IMG/VR virus record: IMGVR_UViG_3300034106_005968
Location: 1 to 30,582 of that record
Source: a virus
Taxonomy: Duplodnaviria; Caudoviricetes
Length of the DNA stretch: 30,582 nt
Strand: one strand, 5' to 3'
The notes beneath the pieces were generated by a model, which saw only the letters and a program-made list of their open reading frames with translations, did not search any database and was not told where the DNA came from. Positions 2,355 to 24,903 of the stretch are shown here, piece by piece. Each line of letters opens with the position of its first letter. Position 1 is the first letter of the stretch. The position numbers and the translations under genes are program-made.

Positions 2355-3536
2355 ATGGAAATTGATTTAACAAATAATATTATCGCAGCGAAAAAAGGCA
2401 AAGCACCTTTAAATAAACCATTTCGTCTTCCCTCTGGAAGCAAAAAGAAATTTGGTGTTTATGTAAAGAATGATAAAGGTAATATTGTAAAAGTTACTTT
2501 TGGCGACCCAAATATGTCCATCAAAAGAGACAATCCAGAAAGACGCAAAGCATATAGATCAAGACATGGTTGCGATAGTCCTGGCCCAAAATGGAAAGCT
2601 AATTACTGGTCTTGTAAAATGTGGAGCGCAAAACCAGTAAGTAAAATTACTGGAAGCGAAGAAGAAATCAATTTAGAAGCAGAAGTCCAAGGAAAAAGCA
2701 AAGGACTCTGGTACAATATTCAACAAAAGAAAAAAAGAATGGGTAAAAATTATCGCCCAGCTCCAAAAGGCTCAAAAGATCGCCCAAGTCAAGAAGCTCT
2801 TAAAAAAGCTCAAGCAGAAGATTACTCTAACGAACAATACGAATGGGATGGCGAAACAGAATTTGATCAAAATGAATTAATGACAGCAGAATTAATTAAT
2901 GCAGAAGAAATGGAATCTCCAGAAGAAGAACTACAAGATTACAAAGAAGATTTTTATGAAATGATAGTTGGCTCAATTAATTCTATTTATCAACATTCAA
3001 AAAATATTTTAGATAAACTAAATGATCCAATGGTAAAAGAAAATCTTACTGAACCATTTTTACAACAAATGGCTGCTCTTGCAGAAGACTATATGATTAC
3101 AATTCATAATTATGTAATGTTTAACAAAGAGAATGAAGAATCAGAAAATATGCAAGAAAGCGAAGCTTCTATGATTTTCAAAGTTGGCGATAAAGTCAGA
3201 AATGTAAATGCAGAATGTAAGCACTACGGAAGCGAAGGAATAGTTAAAGAAATTCGTGATCTACCAGAAGACATGGGATATGCAGTTATGTACGAATGTA
3301 CAAATGATGGATCATCTTGGAAAAAGGGTGACATGCTCGGTAAAACAGAAATTCAATTAGTAAAAGCTTCTTATAATGAAAAATATCAAATAGAAGCAGA
3401 CGAAGAATACAAAAAAATGATGACCATTGAAGGCGAAAAATTCAATGAGTTCTTAAAAAAATGTATTCCTACAAAAAAAGGTGATGATAAATCTAAATTT
3501 AAATCTTGCCTTGAAGACTACAAAAAAAATAAGTAA
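2355..3536 (+). CDS. Multi-domain phage protein, possible internal head protein
   Basis: Basic domain KKFGVYVKNDKGNIVKVTFGDPNMSIK...RHGC...YWSCKMW, basic GLWYNIQ...DRPSQEALKK module and SH3/KOW-like FKVGDKV domain, separated by acidic linkers. Confidence 0.6.
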   Translation: MEIDLTNNIIAAKKGKAPLNKPFRLPSGSKKKFGVYVKNDKGNIVKVTFGDPNMSIKRDNPERRKAYRSRHGCDSPGPKWKANYWSCKMWSAKPVSKITGSEEEINLEAEVQGKSKGLWYNIQQKKKRMGKNYRPAPKGSKDRPSQEALKKAQAEDYSNEQYEWDGETEFDQNELMTAELINAEEMESPEEELQDYKEDFYEMIVGSINSIYQHSKNILDKLNDPMVKENLTEPFLQQMAALAEDYMITIHNYVMFNKENEESENMQESEASMIFKVGDKVRNVNAECKHYGSEGIVKEIRDLPEDMGYAVMYECTNDGSSWKKGDMLGKTEIQLVKASYNEKYQIEADEEYKKMMTIEGEKFNEFLKKCIPTKKGDDKSKFKSCLEDYKKNK

Positions 3537-4047
3537 ACTCTGGAACTGGAAAACAAAAACATTACTTGTTGGGGTTGCGTTAATCGTATCTTGGATCTCC
3601 TGCTTAAAAATTGGATTTGAATTAAAGAAATATAACTCAATAACAAATCTTCCTAATTCTTGCTTTGTTGATGCAATGATTTATGCTTCTAGATGTAATC
3701 TTCTTTTAGTAACTACCTCAGACTCTTGGAATAGTGTTTATGGTTTTACTTTTGGCTATAAAGACGACAAAGAAGCTATCCTTGGTCATGCAGTTTGTGT
3801 TTTTGAGTATAATAATAACTTATGGATGTATGATCCTAATTGGGGTACATCTCCAATATGTCAAATTGGAGATAGAAAAAGATACAAAGAAAAAATAAAA
3901 TTGCATATAAACAAAAATTACCCTATAATAGTAATAGAGGATTTTATGTTAAATGATTGGACATATGTTCAAAAAGCAAAGAAAAATAAAATGAACAATT
4001 CATATAAAGAAGTGTCTATACATTTAGATGAAAACAAGAAGGAGTAA
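3481..4047 (+). CDS. Membrane-anchored papain-fold/transglutaminase-like Cys-His-Asp enzyme
   Basis: N-terminal hydrophobic helix LLVGVALIVSWISCL; spaced motifs NSCF, GHAVCVF and WMYDPNWG; start uncertain (GTG 3481, ATG 3484 or TTG 3511). Confidence 0.6.
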   Translation: MMINLNLNLALKTTKKISKLWNWKTKTLLVGVALIVSWISCLKIGFELKKYNSITNLPNSCFVDAMIYASRCNLLLVTTSDSWNSVYGFTFGYKDDKEAILGHAVCVFEYNNNLWMYDPNWGTSPICQIGDRKRYKEKIKLHINKNYPIIVIEDFMLNDWTYVQKAKKNKMNNSYKEVSIHLDENKKE

Positions 4048-4056
4048 ACTAATATC

Positions 4057-4782
4057 ATGAAAATAAACCTACTAAAAAGGTTACTAAGAAACACAGCCGC
4101 AAAATTAATTGCGGCTTTTTTAATGCTCAGTAGCGGCCAGTCAAACGCTGCACTTGTCCTGACCAATGGCAGCTTTAGTGATACGACTGGTCTAAGTATT
4201 GTTGGCGGTGGTTGGTATTCTGGCGTTCCAATCGGCTGGAGTAGCGACAGACCAGATACAACTTATTCAGTCTTAAATACTGGCGATACTTATGTTGCCA
4301 ACTTGTCTCAACTCACTCGTATATCTCCTGCATTTTCTGCTCTCACTCAAAGCGTTGGAACTACAGATTATTTTGGTGATGTTACGATGAAGTTTGACAT
4401 GTCAACCTTCATTAATGCTCCTGATTGGCAAGTTGGGGCTGCGATCTATTCAAACAACTTCGGTAGTCTCCTTGCCCTTAAGCAAATCAAAAACGGAAGC
4501 GCATTTGCAGACCCTGTAACAGGTGACGTTCCAAACGGTATCGGAACCTTTGAGCTCACAGCGTTGAATGTCGCCGCAGGATCCGATATTCAAGTCGCCT
4601 TCTGGACAACTGGAGGCACTCCAGCCTTGACCAATGTCTCTATAATTCCTGAACCTACAGCATTGGAGTTAATCTCACTGCCAGTAAAAGTGGGTCTGTA
4701 CATGGTGGATAATATTTCAAAGAATATTTACACATGTGGAATAAACCCTAGAAAATTTAATGCACTACACATTGTGTACTAA
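4057..4782 (+). CDS. PEP-CTERM-like exported protein 1 (non-canonical tail)
   Basis: AAGGAG SD upstream; signal peptide ending SNA/A; beta-rich passenger; IIPEPTALELI without a following TM helix and basic cluster. Confidence 0.75.
   Translation: MKINLLKRLLRNTAAKLIAAFLMLSSGQSNAALVLTNGSFSDTTGLSIVGGGWYSGVPIGWSSDRPDTTYSVLNTGDTYVANLSQLTRISPAFSALTQSVGTTDYFGDVTMKFDMSTFINAPDWQVGAAIYSNNFGSLLALKQIKNGSAFADPVTGDVPNGIGTFELTALNVAAGSDIQVAFWTTGGTPALTNVSIIPEPTALELISLPVKVGLYMVDNISKNIYTCGINPRKFNALHIVY
4095..4121 (+). terminator. Intrinsic terminator-like hairpin inside the 5' end of gene 4057
   Basis: AGCCGCAA-aattaa-TTGCGGCT perfect 8-bp stem running into a T-tract (4116-4121). Confidence 0.55.
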
Positions 4783-4785
4783 TTT

Positions 4786-5616
4786 ATGAAAAAAACAATA
4801 ACAACAATACTAACAATAGCAATACTAGCTATATCTAATATCTCACAATCAGCAGTATCATATGTAGGTACTGAGACTGGAGGCGCAAGCAATGGCTATT
4901 CAGTACAAAATTGGTCAAACGCTAGTGTATCTAAAGCTTATGATGTAGGAGGCGATGTATATGGTTCTTCTGGCTACATTCAAATACGTCCTATGCCTTG
5001 GGATCCAAGTTCAGCAAGTATTGGTGAAGCTACAGGTTCTGGAAACCTTCTTGGCACAGATGCAAGCTCCAATCCTTCATTGAGTTTAACTCCATCTTTT
5101 GTTAGTTCATTTTCTGGAGGAGCAGGTACATTTGTTAACTATGGTGGTTATAATATTTTTAGAGGCCCTGATGGTTCATTGCTTTACAGACAAGGCGCAT
5201 TATCAGTACCAGTGAACAATGGTCCTTATGATACACCCGCAGGATCGAATAATGGTTATTTTGGTGTGGCTTTTAGTTTTACCATAAATGCTCCAACCAC
5301 ATTCAGATTTGGTTTAACTGTAGATACAGCTGCTAATGGTTTGTATGCACCAGATTATGTGGGTGTGTACAGTGCCAGAACAGGCACAGTTCTCTCCACG
5401 CAATTAACCAGAGATGGTAATCCTGATATGGCAGTCTTTGAAATTGAAGCATTAGTAAATGAAACATTTACAGTATCAGTATGGCAATTAGCTGGCACTC
5501 AAAGTATTGCTCCTTTTAGTTTAGCTACATTTGATGCTGTTGCAATTCCAGAACCTCTTACGATTAGCCTAATTCCAATTACATTATTTCTTGCATGTAG
5601 AAAAAGAAAAATATGA
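4786..5616 (+). CDS. PEP-CTERM sorting-domain protein 2
   Basis: Signal peptide MKKTITTILTIAILAISNISQSA; C-terminus IPEPLTISLIPITLFLACRKRKI (PEP, hydrophobic stretch, basic cluster). Confidence 0.88.
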   Translation: MKKTITTILTIAILAISNISQSAVSYVGTETGGASNGYSVQNWSNASVSKAYDVGGDVYGSSGYIQIRPMPWDPSSASIGEATGSGNLLGTDASSNPSLSLTPSFVSSFSGGAGTFVNYGGYNIFRGPDGSLLYRQGALSVPVNNGPYDTPAGSNNGYFGVAFSFTINAPTTFRFGLTVDTAANGLYAPDYVGVYSARTGTVLSTQLTRDGNPDMAVFEIEALVNETFTVSVWQLAGTQSIAPFSLATFDAVAIPEPLTISLIPITLFLACRKRKI

Positions 5617-7241
5617 AAAAAATAATACTAACAATACTAACAGTACTAACATTAACTTTTTATTCACACGCTGCGACAGATACTTGGAGTGGCGCCACAA
5701 GTAGCGACTGGTCCACTGGAGCCAACTGGAGCCTTGGCTATGCTCCGACAAGTGTAGATATGGCAAGATTTATGTGGTCCACAGCAAATGCTCCGACTCT
5801 TGGCGCGGGTTCTTTTATAACCACAAAAATGTATTTTTTCTCCAGCGGAGCTCTGCCGAATTATAATTTCACTGGTGCGGGTAGTGCTAACACGACACTA
5901 AAAATCGATCCTAATTCGGGCTCGACGGTAAGTTTCATTGAAAACGCTGGAGGCACTTCGGGTGGAATCAATCAAACCTTTAGTAATTTAACTCTTCTGC
6001 TTCAGGATTCTAATCTAACAGGGCAGACGAAAATTCAAACTGGAGACGGACGATCAGTTACCATCGCTTCGAATGCAACCTTGCAAATTGGATTTACAAC
6101 TACCCAGACGGTGATACTTGAGGCGAACTCGCCTCAAACAGGATCTGGCACACTAAATGTCAACGGTGTGCTGAACGCTGGAGTTACAGGTTCAACCATC
6201 TCGGTTGAGAAATCAGGGGTCTTAAACTTGAACTTGGCGGCGGGAAGTGATTTCACCAATCTGCAACTGAGTTCCAAAAATGGTGGTGTAATTAATTTTT
6301 TGGCTGGTGGAGACTTGGGAGGATCTGTCTCGATATATTCTGGTGGTGTTGCTAACGTAGCCACATCTGGCATGACATTAGATACAACACAGTTTTCTAT
6401 AGTGAGTGGTGGAAAAATCAGCACAACGTACACCAGCGGAACTTCAACCCTTGGCGGATTGCTCAGTCTCGCAAATGGGACAGGGGGGCCAACAAGCACA
6501 TTTGATGTCGCTTCTGGCGGAATCTTGGCGCTGACTAATCGAGTTCAATTGGGTAGTGCTTCGGCAATTGTAGAGAAAACTGGAAACGGAACGTTAGCTC
6601 TCACCTATTCTGGTGGAACTGGGAACTCCTTTACCGCAAGTGCATTTAATGTCAAGGCAGGAACTCTTCTGGTGAATAATATTGGGAACAGTACGGCCAG
6701 TGCTGCTGCTGTCAATATTTTCTCTGGAGCGACTCTTGCTGGAGCGGGTAGGATTACGGGTGCGACCACAATCAGCGGTATCTTAGCGCCAGGAAACAGC
6801 ATTGGTACACTCACGGTAGCAAATGATGTGACTTGGAATGGAAGTCTATTAGGCGGGGATGCAACTACTGATTGGAAGTTTGAGTTGGGCGCAGCTAACA
6901 CGGCGGATCTTCTCCAGATTACTGGTGCAGAAAGCGAGTTTATCAAAGGCACAGGAACGACTTTTCGTTTTGATTTCTTGGGCAGCACAGCTACAGGTAC
7001 ATTCAAGCTGGTGGATTGGGATAGCATTGTGCCATGGACTGGTGGTGAGGTGGAAGGCACAAACTTTAGTATAGCAGATTTCACCTACACTAATCTGGGG
7101 GGTAGCAATTTTGGTACTTTTCAATTTAACGGATCTCAGCTCGAGTTTCAAGCTATTCCTGAACCATCAGCTGCATCTTTAATGGTTCTAGGAGGAGCAG
7201 CACTATCATTACTTGGACTAAGAAGGATTAAAAATTCATGA
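5613..7241 (+). CDS. PEP-CTERM protein 3 with autotransporter-associated beta-strand repeat passenger
   Basis: Signal peptide; WSGATSSDWSTGANWS, VEKTGNGTLALT, LAPGNSIGTLTV; tail IPEPSAASLMVLGGAALSLLGLRRIKNS. Confidence 0.92.
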   Translation: MKKIILTILTVLTLTFYSHAATDTWSGATSSDWSTGANWSLGYAPTSVDMARFMWSTANAPTLGAGSFITTKMYFFSSGALPNYNFTGAGSANTTLKIDPNSGSTVSFIENAGGTSGGINQTFSNLTLLLQDSNLTGQTKIQTGDGRSVTIASNATLQIGFTTTQTVILEANSPQTGSGTLNVNGVLNAGVTGSTISVEKSGVLNLNLAAGSDFTNLQLSSKNGGVINFLAGGDLGGSVSIYSGGVANVATSGMTLDTTQFSIVSGGKISTTYTSGTSTLGGLLSLANGTGGPTSTFDVASGGILALTNRVQLGSASAIVEKTGNGTLALTYSGGTGNSFTASAFNVKAGTLLVNNIGNSTASAAAVNIFSGATLAGAGRITGATTISGILAPGNSIGTLTVANDVTWNGSLLGGDATTDWKFELGAANTADLLQITGAESEFIKGTGTTFRFDFLGSTATGTFKLVDWDSIVPWTGGEVEGTNFSIADFTYTNLGGSNFGTFQFNGSQLEFQAIPEPSAASLMVLGGAALSLLGLRRIKNS

Positions 7242-9007
7242 AAAAACTAATAACAACAATACTAACAACAGCTCTATTAACTATAGCTAATAATGCTCAA
7301 GCAGTAGTTTTTTTGTGGAATAATACTGGAACAAATTGGACATCTCCAACAAGCTGGACCAATGGCGTACAACCATCATCAACTAGTTCTAGTACCACCA
7401 CAGATGAAATTCAGTTTGGCAATGTTGGAGCCAATAACAATACTGTTGTGTTGACTTCAGCCACCAGAGCTGCTCAGAATATAACATTCTTAACAAATGC
7501 TAATGCATATAATATTAACAGTTTCAATGGCGCTCAAACATTATCATCTAGAGCAGGAATTACAAATAATTCTACTGCTACTCAAACATTTAATATATTA
7601 GTAGAAAATGCTAATAATAGTAATACATGGTTTCAAACTGCAGGTGGCGAATTAGTATTCAATAATGTAGCTTCTCTCACAACTGCTTCTTCTAGCACAT
7701 CCAGACTATTAACTCTAGCAGGAGATGGTGCATTCACATTTAATAATGAATTGAGACAAGGTGGTTCAGCTACAGGTGGTAGAGTTTTATATACAGGCAA
7801 TGGTACAGTCACATTCAATGGCACTAACATTCTGGGTGGAGGGTTTGAAATTAAAGGAGGTGGCACTGTGAATGTGAATGGTGGCACTGGCATGGGCACA
7901 GGATTAATAACAATTGCAGCTGCAACTGGCACAACCAATGGTCCTAAATTGATAATCAATACAACCAATGGTCTATCTGTTGCCAACAGCTTCAAGGGTT
8001 CCAGCAGCTTATCTACCATGGCCACATTGGATTTACTAGCAGGCAATGATACAAATGCAGTCATGACCTTTGTTGTCAATCAGTATCAAGGCAACAACAT
8101 GAGCTTCACCAACCACGGTATAGGTAAAACACTGTTACAATTCACCAATGCTTCCAACATACTCACATCATCCACAGATAACAGTGGTGGCAGAAGATTG
8201 ATTAATAATAGCGCTAGTTTAACTATACAGTTTGATGGTACATTGGACATTGGATCCACAACTGCAGATGTTAATATTGTAGGTGGAGCAGGTGATTTTC
8301 TATTCAAAGGATCTCTGCTCAACACAGCCTCAGTGCTCAGAGGATTAACCAAGACAGGCACTGGCACAGTCACTTTGCAAGCGGTCAATACTTACAATGG
8401 AGAAACTATTGTTCAAGATGGCACATTAATAGTGAATGGTTCTTTGCAGAGCCCTCTGACTACAGTAAATAATGGAGCTTTATTGGGTGGATCTGGTTCA
8501 CTACAAGGAGTACTTTTAAATCGTGGCACTATATCAGCAGGAAATAGCGCTGGCTTATTAAGTATGAATAGTTTAAATGCAAGTAATGGTAATTTTATTT
8601 TTGAGTTAGGTGCACCAAGTTCTAGAGGCATTACTTACGATGCAATAGATGTAAGTAGTTTATTAACTCTTGGAACAGACACAGACTTTACATTTGAAAC
8701 ATTAAACAATTATGTATTTGCAGATGGAGATACTTACGATCTATTCAATTGGGGTTCAGCGGATATGACTAACTTTAATGTGTCAGTACTCGAAGCTGCA
8801 CTACCTTCTTTGGCAAGCACACCTGAATTGACATGGAATGTATCACAGTTTACTTTGGATGGTTCAGTTTCTGTTAGTATTATACCTGAGCCAACAGTAT
8901 TAGAATTAATAACTGCACCATGGCAAGCTTTAAAAGCTTTATGTAGAATGCAAGCAGAATTTGCAGAACAAAACCCCGTTATTGCTACCATACAAACAGG
9001 AATATAA
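7238..9007 (+). CDS. PEP-CTERM-like protein 4 with autotransporter-associated beta-strand repeats (non-canonical tail)
   Basis: Signal peptide MKKLITTILTTALLTIANNAQA; GLTKTGTGTVTLQAVNTYNGETIVQDGTLIV; ISAGNSAGLL; IIPEPTVLELI with no TM/basic end. Confidence 0.85.
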   Translation: MKKLITTILTTALLTIANNAQAVVFLWNNTGTNWTSPTSWTNGVQPSSTSSSTTTDEIQFGNVGANNNTVVLTSATRAAQNITFLTNANAYNINSFNGAQTLSSRAGITNNSTATQTFNILVENANNSNTWFQTAGGELVFNNVASLTTASSSTSRLLTLAGDGAFTFNNELRQGGSATGGRVLYTGNGTVTFNGTNILGGGFEIKGGGTVNVNGGTGMGTGLITIAAATGTTNGPKLIINTTNGLSVANSFKGSSSLSTMATLDLLAGNDTNAVMTFVVNQYQGNNMSFTNHGIGKTLLQFTNASNILTSSTDNSGGRRLINNSASLTIQFDGTLDIGSTTADVNIVGGAGDFLFKGSLLNTASVLRGLTKTGTGTVTLQAVNTYNGETIVQDGTLIVNGSLQSPLTTVNNGALLGGSGSLQGVLLNRGTISAGNSAGLLSMNSLNASNGNFIFELGAPSSRGITYDAIDVSSLLTLGTDTDFTFETLNNYVFADGDTYDLFNWGSADMTNFNVSVLEAALPSLASTPELTWNVSQFTLDGSVSVSIIPEPTVLELITAPWQALKALCRMQAEFAEQNPVIATIQTGI

Positions 9008-9010
9008 TTT

Positions 9011-9169
9011 ATGAAAAAACTAACAACATTAATTGGGGAGATAACTTCTTTTGCAACAGATGAAATGGTTAGTGTTATCTCTGTTCCAGAACCATCAGCT
9101 CTTCAATTATTTGGAATAGGTTTGATTTCTTTGCTCGCTTGTCATAGAATAAATAAAAGAAATGGATAA
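9011..9169 (+). CDS. Mini PEP-CTERM gene / empty cassette (52 aa), not in the ORF track
   Basis: MKKLTTLIGEITSFATDEMVSVISVPEPSALQLFGIGLISLLACHRINKRNG*: array-type leader start joined almost directly to a canonical VPEP-TM-basic tail. Confidence 0.8.
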   Translation: MKKLTTLIGEITSFATDEMVSVISVPEPSALQLFGIGLISLLACHRINKRNG

Positions 9170-9407
9170 TCAATTGAGAAACTTATTATTGAGTAATTAT
9201 GAAAGAAGCCTTCCATCCAAAAGGGATACAGAAGATTTTATAAGTAATTTCCATCAATATAGAGCCCAAAAGAAAGCACAAGAAAAGACACATTATGGTT
9301 TAGCTTTGTTGGCTATATTAATTTTAACTGCATTAGGATCAATAGCCTTAAAAGAAACAACAAATAAATTAGATATACAAACAGCTAGTGGTCAAGTTCA
9401 AAAATGA
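9162..9407 (+). CDS. Small single-pass membrane protein, anti-sigma-like topology
   Basis: 81 aa; soluble N-terminal helical part, TM YGLALLAILILTALGSIAL, short C-terminal tail. Confidence 0.55.
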   Translation: MDNQLRNLLLSNYERSLPSKRDTEDFISNFHQYRAQKKAQEKTHYGLALLAILILTALGSIALKETTNKLDIQTASGQVQK

Positions 9408-9784
9408 AATTAATATATATACTATTAGCCGCAATTTTAATTCAATCTTCTTATGCTGAAGATAAAATCAAAATATCAATAAATAAAGATAAGAATGGTA
9501 AAATAACTTTAGTTAGCTCTGGACATTCAGCTCCAATATCTTTTGATATTATGGGCAAAAGCTATGATGTTCCATCTGGTGGTGGATCAGTAGAAGTTGA
9601 ATCAAAAGAATTTGAATCTAAAACAGAAACAGAGATTGATCCTGCTTTAGATGTTAATGCTGAGAGCGGATCTGAAAATCGTAGTAGCAATATCTCGCAG
9701 CCATTTGGATCTCAACAATTTAACTCTTTACTTATACCGCCAGTAAATTCTAATCCAAATCCACTAGAAGCAACCCCAATTTAA
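9404..9784 (+). CDS. Exported hypothetical protein
   Basis: Signal peptide MKLIYILLAAILIQSSYA; small beta domain and disordered acidic/Pro-rich tail. Confidence 0.7.
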   Translation: MKLIYILLAAILIQSSYAEDKIKISINKDKNGKITLVSSGHSAPISFDIMGKSYDVPSGGGSVEVESKEFESKTETEIDPALDVNAESGSENRSSNISQPFGSQQFNSLLIPPVNSNPNPLEATPI

Positions 9785-10182: not shown

Positions 10183-11064
10183 ATGATATTAAATCCAGGT
10201 AGACCAGATATAAATAAAGCGGTAATTCCCTCTACTCAAATTTCAGATTCCACAACTGCTGGAAGGGCTTTATTAACGGGCCCTAGCGTTCAATCTCAAA
10301 GACAAACTTTAAGTCTTTTTCCAACATATTCTAGTTACGCAGATCTTGTAGCAAATGGTCCACAACAAACAAGTAGAGTTTATATAACAACTGACGATTG
10401 GAGAACTTATGCATGGGTTTCAAGTATAAGTCAATATATTGAAGTATCTCCTTCTGTCTCATCTGTAAATTCTGGAGTTATGATTTCTAGCGGAATAAAC
10501 GGTGATTTTAGTAATTTAAATGGACTTGTAAAACAAGTTGCTGAGGAATGGTGGGAGGGTGTGCCAATTGGCTGGTCTGGAGTTAACTCACTTTATACAG
10601 TATATAGTGGTATTAACACTAATAATTATATAGCTAACGTAGCAGCACTATCGACAGGACCTGCTGGTAATTCTTTTCGTCAAAATTTAGGAAGATTACC
10701 AATAACTTCAGATGTAGAATTAACATTTACTTTATTGAATTCTTTTCCAGCTTTTGGTACTCCAGTTTTAAATGCAGCAATATATGATATAGGTTATAAT
10801 AATCTTGCTACAGGTTCATATTCTACAACAACTAGCGGTACATTTACATTAACTGGAAATTCAATTCCAGCAAATACTAACATTATTGTAGGATTTTGGG
10901 CAGACGCTGCTAATCCAGCTCTAGATAATGTATCAATTTCTCAAACTACGCCAGCAACTACATGGATATTTCCCACTACTTTACCAAGAAATAGTGATAA
11001 TTTACCAAGTGGCGCTTTATGGGTAGATGTAGCTGCTGGAAATGTATTAAAAATTAAATTATAA
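10183..11064 (+). CDS. Tail-fibre-type virion protein carrying a PEP-CTERM passenger homolog
   Basis: Phage fibre-like modules ISDSTTAGRALLT, RVYITTDDWRTYAW...YIEVSP and LPSGALWVDVAAGNVLKI flank a domain alignable with the passenger of ORF 4057. Confidence 0.72.
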   Translation: MILNPGRPDINKAVIPSTQISDSTTAGRALLTGPSVQSQRQTLSLFPTYSSYADLVANGPQQTSRVYITTDDWRTYAWVSSISQYIEVSPSVSSVNSGVMISSGINGDFSNLNGLVKQVAEEWWEGVPIGWSGVNSLYTVYSGINTNNYIANVAALSTGPAGNSFRQNLGRLPITSDVELTFTLLNSFPAFGTPVLNAAIYDIGYNNLATGSYSTTTSGTFTLTGNSIPANTNIIVGFWADAANPALDNVSISQTTPATTWIFPTTLPRNSDNLPSGALWVDVAAGNVLKIKL

Positions 11065-24114: not shown

Positions 24115-24903
24115 ATGGCAACTAAAAATGTAAAAGACTTCCCAGGACAACAATCAATTAATTTAGATATTGACTCTATTTTAGCTGTTTCAGATAATAA
24201 TTTAAGAAGATTAAATGGAAATAATGCTTCTTTAACAATTAATAATATTTATGCAGCTAATATAATTTATAATACTGGAAATCAAACTATTAGCGGAGTT
24301 AAGAATTTTGTTTCTCTTCCAACTGTAAATAATACAGGAGTTCTTTTGAGTGGCCAAAGCCCTGCTATAAGCGATTCTTTAGTTACGCATATACGACCTA
24401 GCGGAACAAATAATGTTTTCGTTTCTTCTACTGCACTTGCTTCAACCTCTATTGGTAGTCAAAACAACATTGCTGTTGGGGTAAATGCACTTACCGCCAA
24501 CGTCGCGGGAGATGACAACGTTGCTATGGGCCATGAAGCCCTTTACTCTAACACAAACGGTAATGGCAATATTGGTATTGGGAGGGATGCACTAAAAAAT
24601 GCCAATGGACCTGATGCCAATATATGCATAGGTACTCAAGCGGGAGACGGTATTCAGGAAGGTGGCAGTAATATAATAATTGGACACGAAGCCGATGTTG
24701 ATAACTCTGGCAGGCAAAGGTGCATTGTCCTCGGAAGGAGCGCAACTTCCCCAGCAATCGACGGTTCGTTAGCGATTGGGGGCACTGCTGCGAATGCAAT
24801 GGCCAACCTTAATGTTACAGGCGCAGGGGCAGCTGCCGTAGGAGAATATTTAAACATTTACATAAACGGAGTTCAGCGCAAGATTGCTCTTTTACTACCG
24901 TAA
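24115..24903 (+). CDS. Fibre protein with YadA-head/Hep_Hag-like repeats
   Basis: NTGNQTISGVKNF and PTVNNTGVLLSG linker; NxAxGxxAL repeats; GC-richer 3' half. Confidence 0.72.
   Translation: MATKNVKDFPGQQSINLDIDSILAVSDNNLRRLNGNNASLTINNIYAANIIYNTGNQTISGVKNFVSLPTVNNTGVLLSGQSPAISDSLVTHIRPSGTNNVFVSSTALASTSIGSQNNIAVGVNALTANVAGDDNVAMGHEALYSNTNGNGNIGIGRDALKNANGPDANICIGTQAGDGIQEGGSNIIIGHEADVDNSGRQRCIVLGRSATSPAIDGSLAIGGTAANAMANLNVTGAGAAAVGEYLNIYINGVQRKIALLLP

Follow-up and report, generated by a model that had tools for sequence, protein, structure and literature searches.

PEP-CTERM proteins, the substrates of exosortases (families TIGR02595 and PF07589), combine a signal peptide, a variable passenger and a C-terminal Pro-Glu-Pro (PEP) motif, as described in the literature (PMC3237569; for function, PMC12188702). 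Here we analyse a run of five genes of this kind at 4057–9169 of a viral contig of 30,582 nucleotides (IMG/VR record IMGVR_UViG_3300034106_005968; the whole contig is the window). The run lies between fixed flanks, and all five genes, named by their start positions g4057, g4786, g5613, g7238 and g9011, carry a C-terminal PEP motif. We think it quite probable that this is a hypervariable array of exported proteins, whose passengers match surface-protein (PEP-CTERM) genes of Methylacidiphilales, the likely host, were likely captured near the end of the signal peptide and at the PEP codons, and were then likely shuffled between phages through 30-nucleotide (nt) leaders and PEP codons. As in known exosortase substrates, three of the five genes end in the motif, a hydrophobic helix and basic residues. 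Unlike those substrates, the proteins are phage-encoded, with no exosortase (PF09721) match in 121 scanned open reading frames (ORFs) of G035, a relative rated 100% complete; two of the five tails are amphipathic; and host passengers appear grafted onto phage-specific ends.

The PeSL elements of T4-type phages are described as intergenic promoter/terminator cassettes that move whole genes (PMC2839356, PMC4122927). As in PeSL shuffling, short repeats in a hyperplastic region are exchange points for unrelated sequences, indels end in these repeats and a terminator-like stem-loop lies at a junction. Unlike in PeSLs, the repeats here lie in coding sequence (signal peptide, PEP codons), domains are what is exchanged, host chromosomal genes are among the donors and a single hairpin lies within an ORF; a repeated intergenic sigma-70 promoter with stem-loop was not found at this locus. 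By analogy, the array may combine repeat-mediated shuffling of the PeSL type with capture of host genes, acting on domains that lie within coding anchors. In T-even gp38 adhesins, at the tip of the virion tail fibre, conserved motifs likewise flank interchangeable specificity segments (PMC3157838); unlike that tip, the array proteins are equipped with export signals and membrane tails and acquire entire host domains. Phage recombination proteins can also exchange diverged sequences by relaxed (homeologous) recombination, a source of phage mosaicism (PMC2327257). Unlike in lambda Red mosaicism, the enzyme here would presumably be the RecA-like protein that G035 encodes. IME1 of Dehalococcoides is a virus-like integrative element with a single conserved PEP-CTERM-domain gene (bioRxiv 10.64898/2026.09.15.751708); the passage on it mentions no array, capture or swapping. 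Among the papers listed in literature searches, which covered few subscription journals and no supplements, none deals with phage PEP-CTERM arrays by its title or abstract start. The locus would show a phage taking up genes domain by domain: the junctions are resolved to a few bases, and the captures within this single array appear to be of three ages. It would also link a clade of large uncultured lake phages to Methylacidiphilales hosts.

Composition and origin of the passengers

The window is a phage contig with terminase, ERCC4 nuclease, virion-type and lysozyme-like genes, and its IMG/VR relatives reach 172 kb. The G+C content at third codon positions (GC3) of the phage core is 0.17. Array gene 3, g5613 (5613..7241, plus strand), comprises a phage leader, a beta-helix passenger (5666–7165) that appears to be a recent capture and a phage tail with PEP, a transmembrane (TM) helix and basic residues. 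A turn to GC- and CpG-richer DNA at about 5670, reverting at about 7155, had been noticed in the letters of the sequence and is essentially right: the best two GC3 change points are 5667 and 7143 (likelihood ratio 55.6; 0/200 permutations as high, maximum 21.2). From leader to passenger to tail, GC3 goes from 1/19 to 197/495 and back to 2/27, and CpG dinucleotides number 1, 61 and 0 (Fisher p=1.5e-6). Outside this gene the check on GC and codon usage gave less: a smaller break in g7238 (p=0.004), and none of significance in g4786 (p=0.07) or g4057 (p=0.77).

Host genes also match the g5613 passenger. A protein search with g5613 gave 287 matches; among the best 120, many pair the same passenger with a different long leader and a different tail. 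Used as a single query, the protein found no locus in viral or genome contigs and one in metagenome contigs; host loci were reached only through an alignment (A1), which led to genes of Verrucomicrobia, one of the genomes being titled Candidatus Methylacidiphilales. In G001, G002 and G003 the host DNA resembles the window (71–84%) between 5666/5667 and 7165, from the last residues ahead of the apparent cleavage site to a point inside the PEP codons. These host genes are split at contig ends, the 5′ and 3′ matches coming from different contigs. They have their own leaders and tails, unrelated to those of the phage, and the ORFs beside them look, from their translations, like bacterial sugar-metabolism genes. 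In a tree of 48 passenger rows, the 10 that have phage leaders group together (SH-aLRT 97) within the diversity of 30 rows with host leaders, the nearest host-leader protein being 89.5% identical to the phage passenger. Both states occur in the 30 host rows at 10 of the 22 sites that vary among the phage rows; because 263 of 491 columns vary in the host, this common polymorphism does not establish ongoing exchange between phage and host.

The g5613 model (pLDDT 78.5) is a beta-strand repeat protein, mostly of beta strands, that ends in one helix (520–540). Foldseek ranks autotransporter passengers highest for it, though none reaches E<=0.001, and the C-terminal beta-barrel of classical autotransporters was found neither as a family match in the array proteins nor in this model. 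The passengers of the array are likely to act as adhesins or in glycan binding.

Two other passengers also have host counterparts. Array gene 1, g4057 (4057..4782, plus strand), has a first-position leader, a small, apparently host-derived passenger that is CBM/DUF642-like by Atlas features, and an amphipathic PEP tail. It matches the DNA of host genome G022 over 4135–4643 (59% amino-acid identity), and its Atlas neighbours, drawn from language-model features, are CBM/DUF642-bearing PEP-CTERM and VPDSG-CTERM clusters at 0.95. Array gene 2, g4786 (4786..5616, plus strand), has an internal leader and a short canonical-type PEP tail. Host matches to it begin at 4861 in G002, G006 and G020, one of them on a 2.05-Mb contig, at 58–60% amino-acid identity, and its passenger has a GC3 of 0.19. 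Its structure model (pLDDT 44.6) is too poor for use and its Atlas match (0.77) is a lead only. Because four-fold-site identity to the host is 0.50–0.65 for g5613 and 0.60 for g4057 but 0.16–0.30 for g4786, the first two are probably younger captures and g4786 an old, ameliorated one. A gene at 10183–11064, with neither signal peptide nor PEP tail, holds in phage-like DNA (GC3 0.13) a domain that is also found in g4057 as its passenger (31% over 177 columns, E 1e-12), and the domain is therefore also employed outside the array.

Array gene 4, g7238 (7238..9007, plus strand), carries the commonest passenger of the clade, of the PATR beta-helix type (PF12951 and TIGR02601 above cut-off), and an amphipathic PEP tail. 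Relatives of it occur at 26 viral loci, and an unrelated 217-kb phage has the passenger at 86% nt identity from 7285, behind that phage's own leader; none was found among 50,697 GenBank phage records. It has a distant C-terminal region in common with g5613 (29% over 239 columns). CpG is scarce in g4786 (11.6/kb) and g7238 (7.6/kb; phage core, 14.3/kb). The proposal that the passengers are host-like holds by composition for two of four only. Within g7238, patches at 7958–8200 and 8318–8407 have a high GC3 (~0.5) with almost no CpG; their source is possibly a phage lineage of higher GC that is poor in CpG, L009 or L029 being examples.

Array gene 5, g9011 (9011..9169, plus strand), is on its sequence a remnant of 52 residues without a passenger, in which a leader stub is fused to the last codons of a g7238-type passenger and the last-position PEP-CTERM tail; in L035 and L036, 9028–9410 has its counterpart at the 3′ end of full genes (83–84%). 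A second kind of passenger-less remnant, at L040:10107–10280, encodes 57 residues with QEPS in place of PEPS and follows a gene with an amphipathic tail.

Matches to 3900–9500 of the window occur in 9 of 34 host-family genomes, and Methylacidiphilales are the likely host of the phage clade, judged by shared sequence.

Leaders, tails and exchange among phages

Four related AT-rich leaders had been noticed at the outset, and they do form one family: the MKK starts at 4786, 5613, 7238 and 9011 are copies of a 29-nt repeat (79–86% to the reference). Three of the four copies extend to 76 nt at 62–80%, and 28–30 of the first 33 nt agree among the three full leaders. Residues common to pairs of full leaders always use the same codon (7/7, 8/8 and 7/7; p = 0.002–0.006 per pair, given core codon usage). 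The count of four leader-bearing genes stands for the MKK starts, but it missed g4057, the fifth array gene, whose leader is of another type. A pattern test in the window (3 matches, 0 in 100 shuffles) was circular, the pattern having been built from the leaders, and is not relied on. Leader type tracks array position in 40/40 genes, with the first type in 27/27 first genes and the MKK type in 13/13 internal genes of more than 100 residues; this count leaves aside L009, which is another phage, and three 5′-open genes. The leader DNA of g5613 resembles that of its array neighbours, not that of the host. Host leaders have a GC3 of 10/36 to 19/31; the three internal phage leaders have 0–1 of ~20. 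None of the 34 host-family genomes contains the phage leader pattern. The signal peptides of the array are putative, read from the sequence and from the start of the host matches, and g9011 has a stub only.

The tails behave differently from the leaders. A constant tail had been proposed as the second anchor, and this does not hold: the five tails diverge after PEP, only those at 7158 and ~9083 being alike (18/20 nt), several types exist, and small passengers travel with their own tail. A TM helix and basic cluster follow the motif in g4786, g5613 and g9011 (maximum KD15 1.83–2.12; 3–4 Lys/Arg in the last 8 residues), and such an end is missing from g4057 and g7238 (1.51 and 1.01; no Lys/Arg). 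By hidden Markov model, g9011 is above cut-off (PF07589, 22.8 bits; TIGR02595, 17.6 bits), g5613 reaches 16.4 against a cut-off of 20.7, and g4057, g4786 and g7238 have no match. The tails of g4057 and g7238 are amphipathic: each has an acidic residue and a conserved proline but lacks a basic end. Eight such tails occur in the mapped arrays, each with another ORF after it. A profile search of 1.84 billion representatives returned six matches, five with array-like leaders and one a long repeat protein that we take as spurious. The amphipathic PEP tail appears restricted to phages and is new here.

Related loci hold these parts in other combinations. The map covers 31 loci, the window among them, with one locus per contig; duplicates, arrays close to identical and loci with hardly any array sequence or none were left aside. 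The 23 with both flanks hold one PEP gene in 14 cases, two in 7, four in 1 and five in the window. Leader, passenger and tail are incongruent, with many combinations, as the original prediction required. Both leader types precede the g7238-type passenger, and five tail types (7, 7, 6, 3 and 1) follow it. One last-position tail type stands behind five passenger clusters, and the tails of last genes go with the downstream neighbour. In L034 the g4786 passenger lies behind the first leader, g5613 is missing from leader to leader, and an extra gene precedes the same remnant. In L073 the g5613 passenger is joined to the last tail at the PEP codons, and the near-identical passengers of P0001 and P0006 carry different tails.

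Alternative passengers between the same anchors, the further expectation, were looked for in lake runs by comparing the contigs of 8 of 24 listed runs with the window at a likeness of 88–90%. Alternative joints do occur at leaders and PEP codons, with ends at 5612, 5662–5668, 7156, 7166, 7238, 7268 and 9017. Contigs from X2 and X16 have another passenger before the tail at 7156; in X16 the g4057 tail also stands directly before 5612 and a host-like tail begins at 7166; and an X5 contig has a host leader at 5666. In an RNA library, 4125 is joined to 7296 through 19 intervening letters that match IMG/VR arrays, and RNA-library contigs also join a g5613-type leader to the g7238 passenger at 5668. 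Contigs from RNA libraries have a high nominal depth on g7238-type sequence and little or nothing on the g5613 passenger; they cannot rank expression or show strand, and are not used as evidence of level.

Routes of capture and exchange

These observations bear differently on host capture and on exchange between phages. Host and phage share only ~6–15 nt at the anchors (cleavage site, PEP codons). Since host leaders and tails are unrelated to those of the phage and the phage leader pattern is absent from the host-family genomes, leader and tail cannot be homology arms for host capture. The predicted exchange of host passengers between fixed anchors stands as to where the junctions lie (end of the leader, PEP codons), but not as to this role of the anchors. 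Because so little sequence is common to both, host capture is best read as microhomology plus selection: microhomology alone would be enough for the joining, and selection would keep those junctions that leave export signal and tail in frame. Between phages, the 30-nt leaders and the PEP codons are true homology, and indels end in them, leader to leader and PEP to PEP. The phage's own RecA-like machinery would perform the recombination, with no site-specific recombinase; G035 has RecA-like, PD-(D/E)XK, RuvB-like and ERCC4 matches. Once captured, a passenger would offer long homology for later exchange with host alleles and other phages.

Several findings weigh against this account. Small passengers keep their own tail (the g4786 type in 2/2 cases; the g4057 type in the window, L047 and P0147). 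In P0013 the leader is of the phage and the tail host-like; in P0005 a host leader is followed by a phage tail, although P0005 lacks a start, may be an assembly chimera and has 0 differences from the phage protein in 518 residues, only its truncated start differing. The passenger tree is a quick, midpoint-rooted one of mosaic genes. Even the best host allele, at 89.5% amino-acid identity, falls short of being near-identical to the phage passenger, so that the donor is not among the alleles found; g7238 has no close host donor, only distant homologues (28–46% amino-acid identity) in 9 of 104 genomes of the order. The host itself is inferred from sequence sharing only. Finally, the joints read from lake-run contigs were taken at 88–90% likeness with short sides (21–33 nt), and support rather than prove the exchange.

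Because P0013 and P0005 mix phage and host ends, capture may be stepwise rather than a double crossover. Whole host genes would then have been taken first, their leaders and tails being replaced later, end by end, through recombination with array neighbours. We regard this as a serious possibility, though clearly less likely than not. P0013 is sister to the other nine phage rows in the passenger tree, P0070 has the same host-like tail, P0005 shows the reverse combination and loose ends occur at 7166 and 5666 in lake runs. However, no mapped array contains a complete host gene, P0005 departs from the phage protein only where it is truncated, and the same microhomology junctions are required, so that only the order of steps differs from capture directly at the two junctions.

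A dedicated site-specific system that places passengers at fixed leader and PEP-codon sites is improbable. The first leader does have a very sharp junction after codon 22, next to a conserved hairpin, but selection on the T-run there would account for the edge. Elsewhere junctions vary within leaders (4122–4135, 4824, 5666–5671 and 7285–7296), and the 15-mer around PEP is not invariant, its commonest form being seen 5 times. As had been noted from the sequence, no integrase match was found, nor one to a reverse transcriptase, among 29 window ORFs and 121 of the 153 ORFs of G035 (those of at least 130 residues; smaller and non-ATG frames lie outside the scan). Without a tyrosine or serine recombinase or reverse transcriptase match in these sets, the array is unlike integrons, shufflons and diversity-generating retroelements.

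Ordinary divergence is less probable still. AT-rich, fast-evolving signal peptides and TM tails could look mosaic through amino-acid composition and tandem duplication; the leaders are indeed rich in Ile, Leu and Thr, the breaks in g4786 and g4057 are not significant, and g5613 and g7238 do have their distant C-terminal region in common. Yet the break sits at third codon positions, host leaders far exceed the internal phage leaders in GC3, the g5613 leader matches its neighbours' DNA and not the host's, P0001 and P0006 differ in their tails, and host alignments contradict this explanation for g5613. An assembly chimera of host and phage reads has a negligible chance: although both copies occur in the same lake samples, and X2 and X16 show raised depth on parts of the g5613 passenger, it is ruled out because contigs of other runs bridge the junctions with 0–1 differences (X5, 5219–5713 and 6962–9265; X7, 5298–5713 and 6866–8286; X13, 5499–5972 and 6854–7720), and P0001 is found on 8 contigs and P0002 on 10.

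With capture at the two junctions as the preferred reading, the products would be exported by Sec and sorted by the host exosortase, which is found in 4 of 5 inferred host genomes and not among the G035 ORFs, so that sorting would be in trans. This suggests that the phages exploit the host exosortase pathway to change the surface of the infected cell, which could affect adhesion, mask receptors or exclude superinfection.

The first-leader hairpin and flanking genes

Within the coding sequence of the first leader, at 4095..4122 on the plus strand, lies a hairpin resembling an intrinsic terminator (8-bp stem, 6-nt loop, T-run; z -2.98), with the recurrent junction just past it. It folds in all 19 distinct first-leader variants. 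Over 18 aligned variants, 144/144 stem cells are paired, and one pair is G-C in 10, G-U in 5 and A-U in 3, both sides varying through amino-acid changes; the covariation nevertheless rests on this one pair, and 36/500 shuffles reach the observed score. A strict scan of G035 found three terminator-like elements, the first-leader hairpin alone lying inside an ORF, and 37/41 viral matches to the hairpin pattern are in first leaders, the other 4 at unrelated loci. Between first leaders that precede different passengers (260 pairs), identity is still 1.00 at codon 22 but only 0.37 at codon 23, right after the T-run. We regard the hairpin as a conserved, putative terminator encoded by the first leader, new here. 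It would make transcription of the array depend on read-through, and its conservation would fix the junction after codon 22. In P0009 and P0013 the region is apparently read in another frame that runs into an internal leader (protein reading only), consistent with conservation of the hairpin as nucleic acid.

A bolder construction, which we consider rather unlikely, is a regulated phage display platform: the terminator in the first signal peptide would gate the array through translation-coupled read-through, fixed scaffolds would continuously sample host surface domains, and the amphipathic tail would be a new sorting signal that diverts the host exosortase (release, decoy or block), remodelling the surface of the infected cell. 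The amphipathic tails and the signal-peptide terminator offer testable handles on PEP-CTERM sorting rules and on the regulation of phage accessory arrays.

The upstream flank gene (3481..4047, plus strand) encodes 188 residues of no family and has 39 IMG/VR relatives at 56–97% identity; the array begins 9–12 nt past it wherever a relative's contig continues. The downstream flank gene (9162..9407, plus strand), of 81 residues with one hydrophobic stretch, overlaps the last tail with its start and is the downstream anchor in mapped related loci. The window has no Rfam match, and a promoter scan was at chance level (20 sites against 22 expected), singling out no promoter. Beyond the flank, a short exported-type gene at 9404–9784 occupies the place of a FecR-domain gene in relatives, with only the C-terminal end in common (48% over 56 columns), which suggests another anchored domain swap or loss. 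Many relatives have a prepilin-type N-methylation gene after the array (L019:10388–11056, L014:10427–11095), always behind its own tail types; the window lacks one. In a tail-spike-like gene (24115–24903), GC3 and CpG climb from ~24415 (GC3 from 0.0–0.17 to 0.23–0.53), and this part is possibly a further captured segment. G035 (L106–L114) also encodes two sigma-70-like proteins, a split DNA polymerase III alpha, and many glycosyltransferases and nucleotide-sugar enzymes, in line with surface remodelling.

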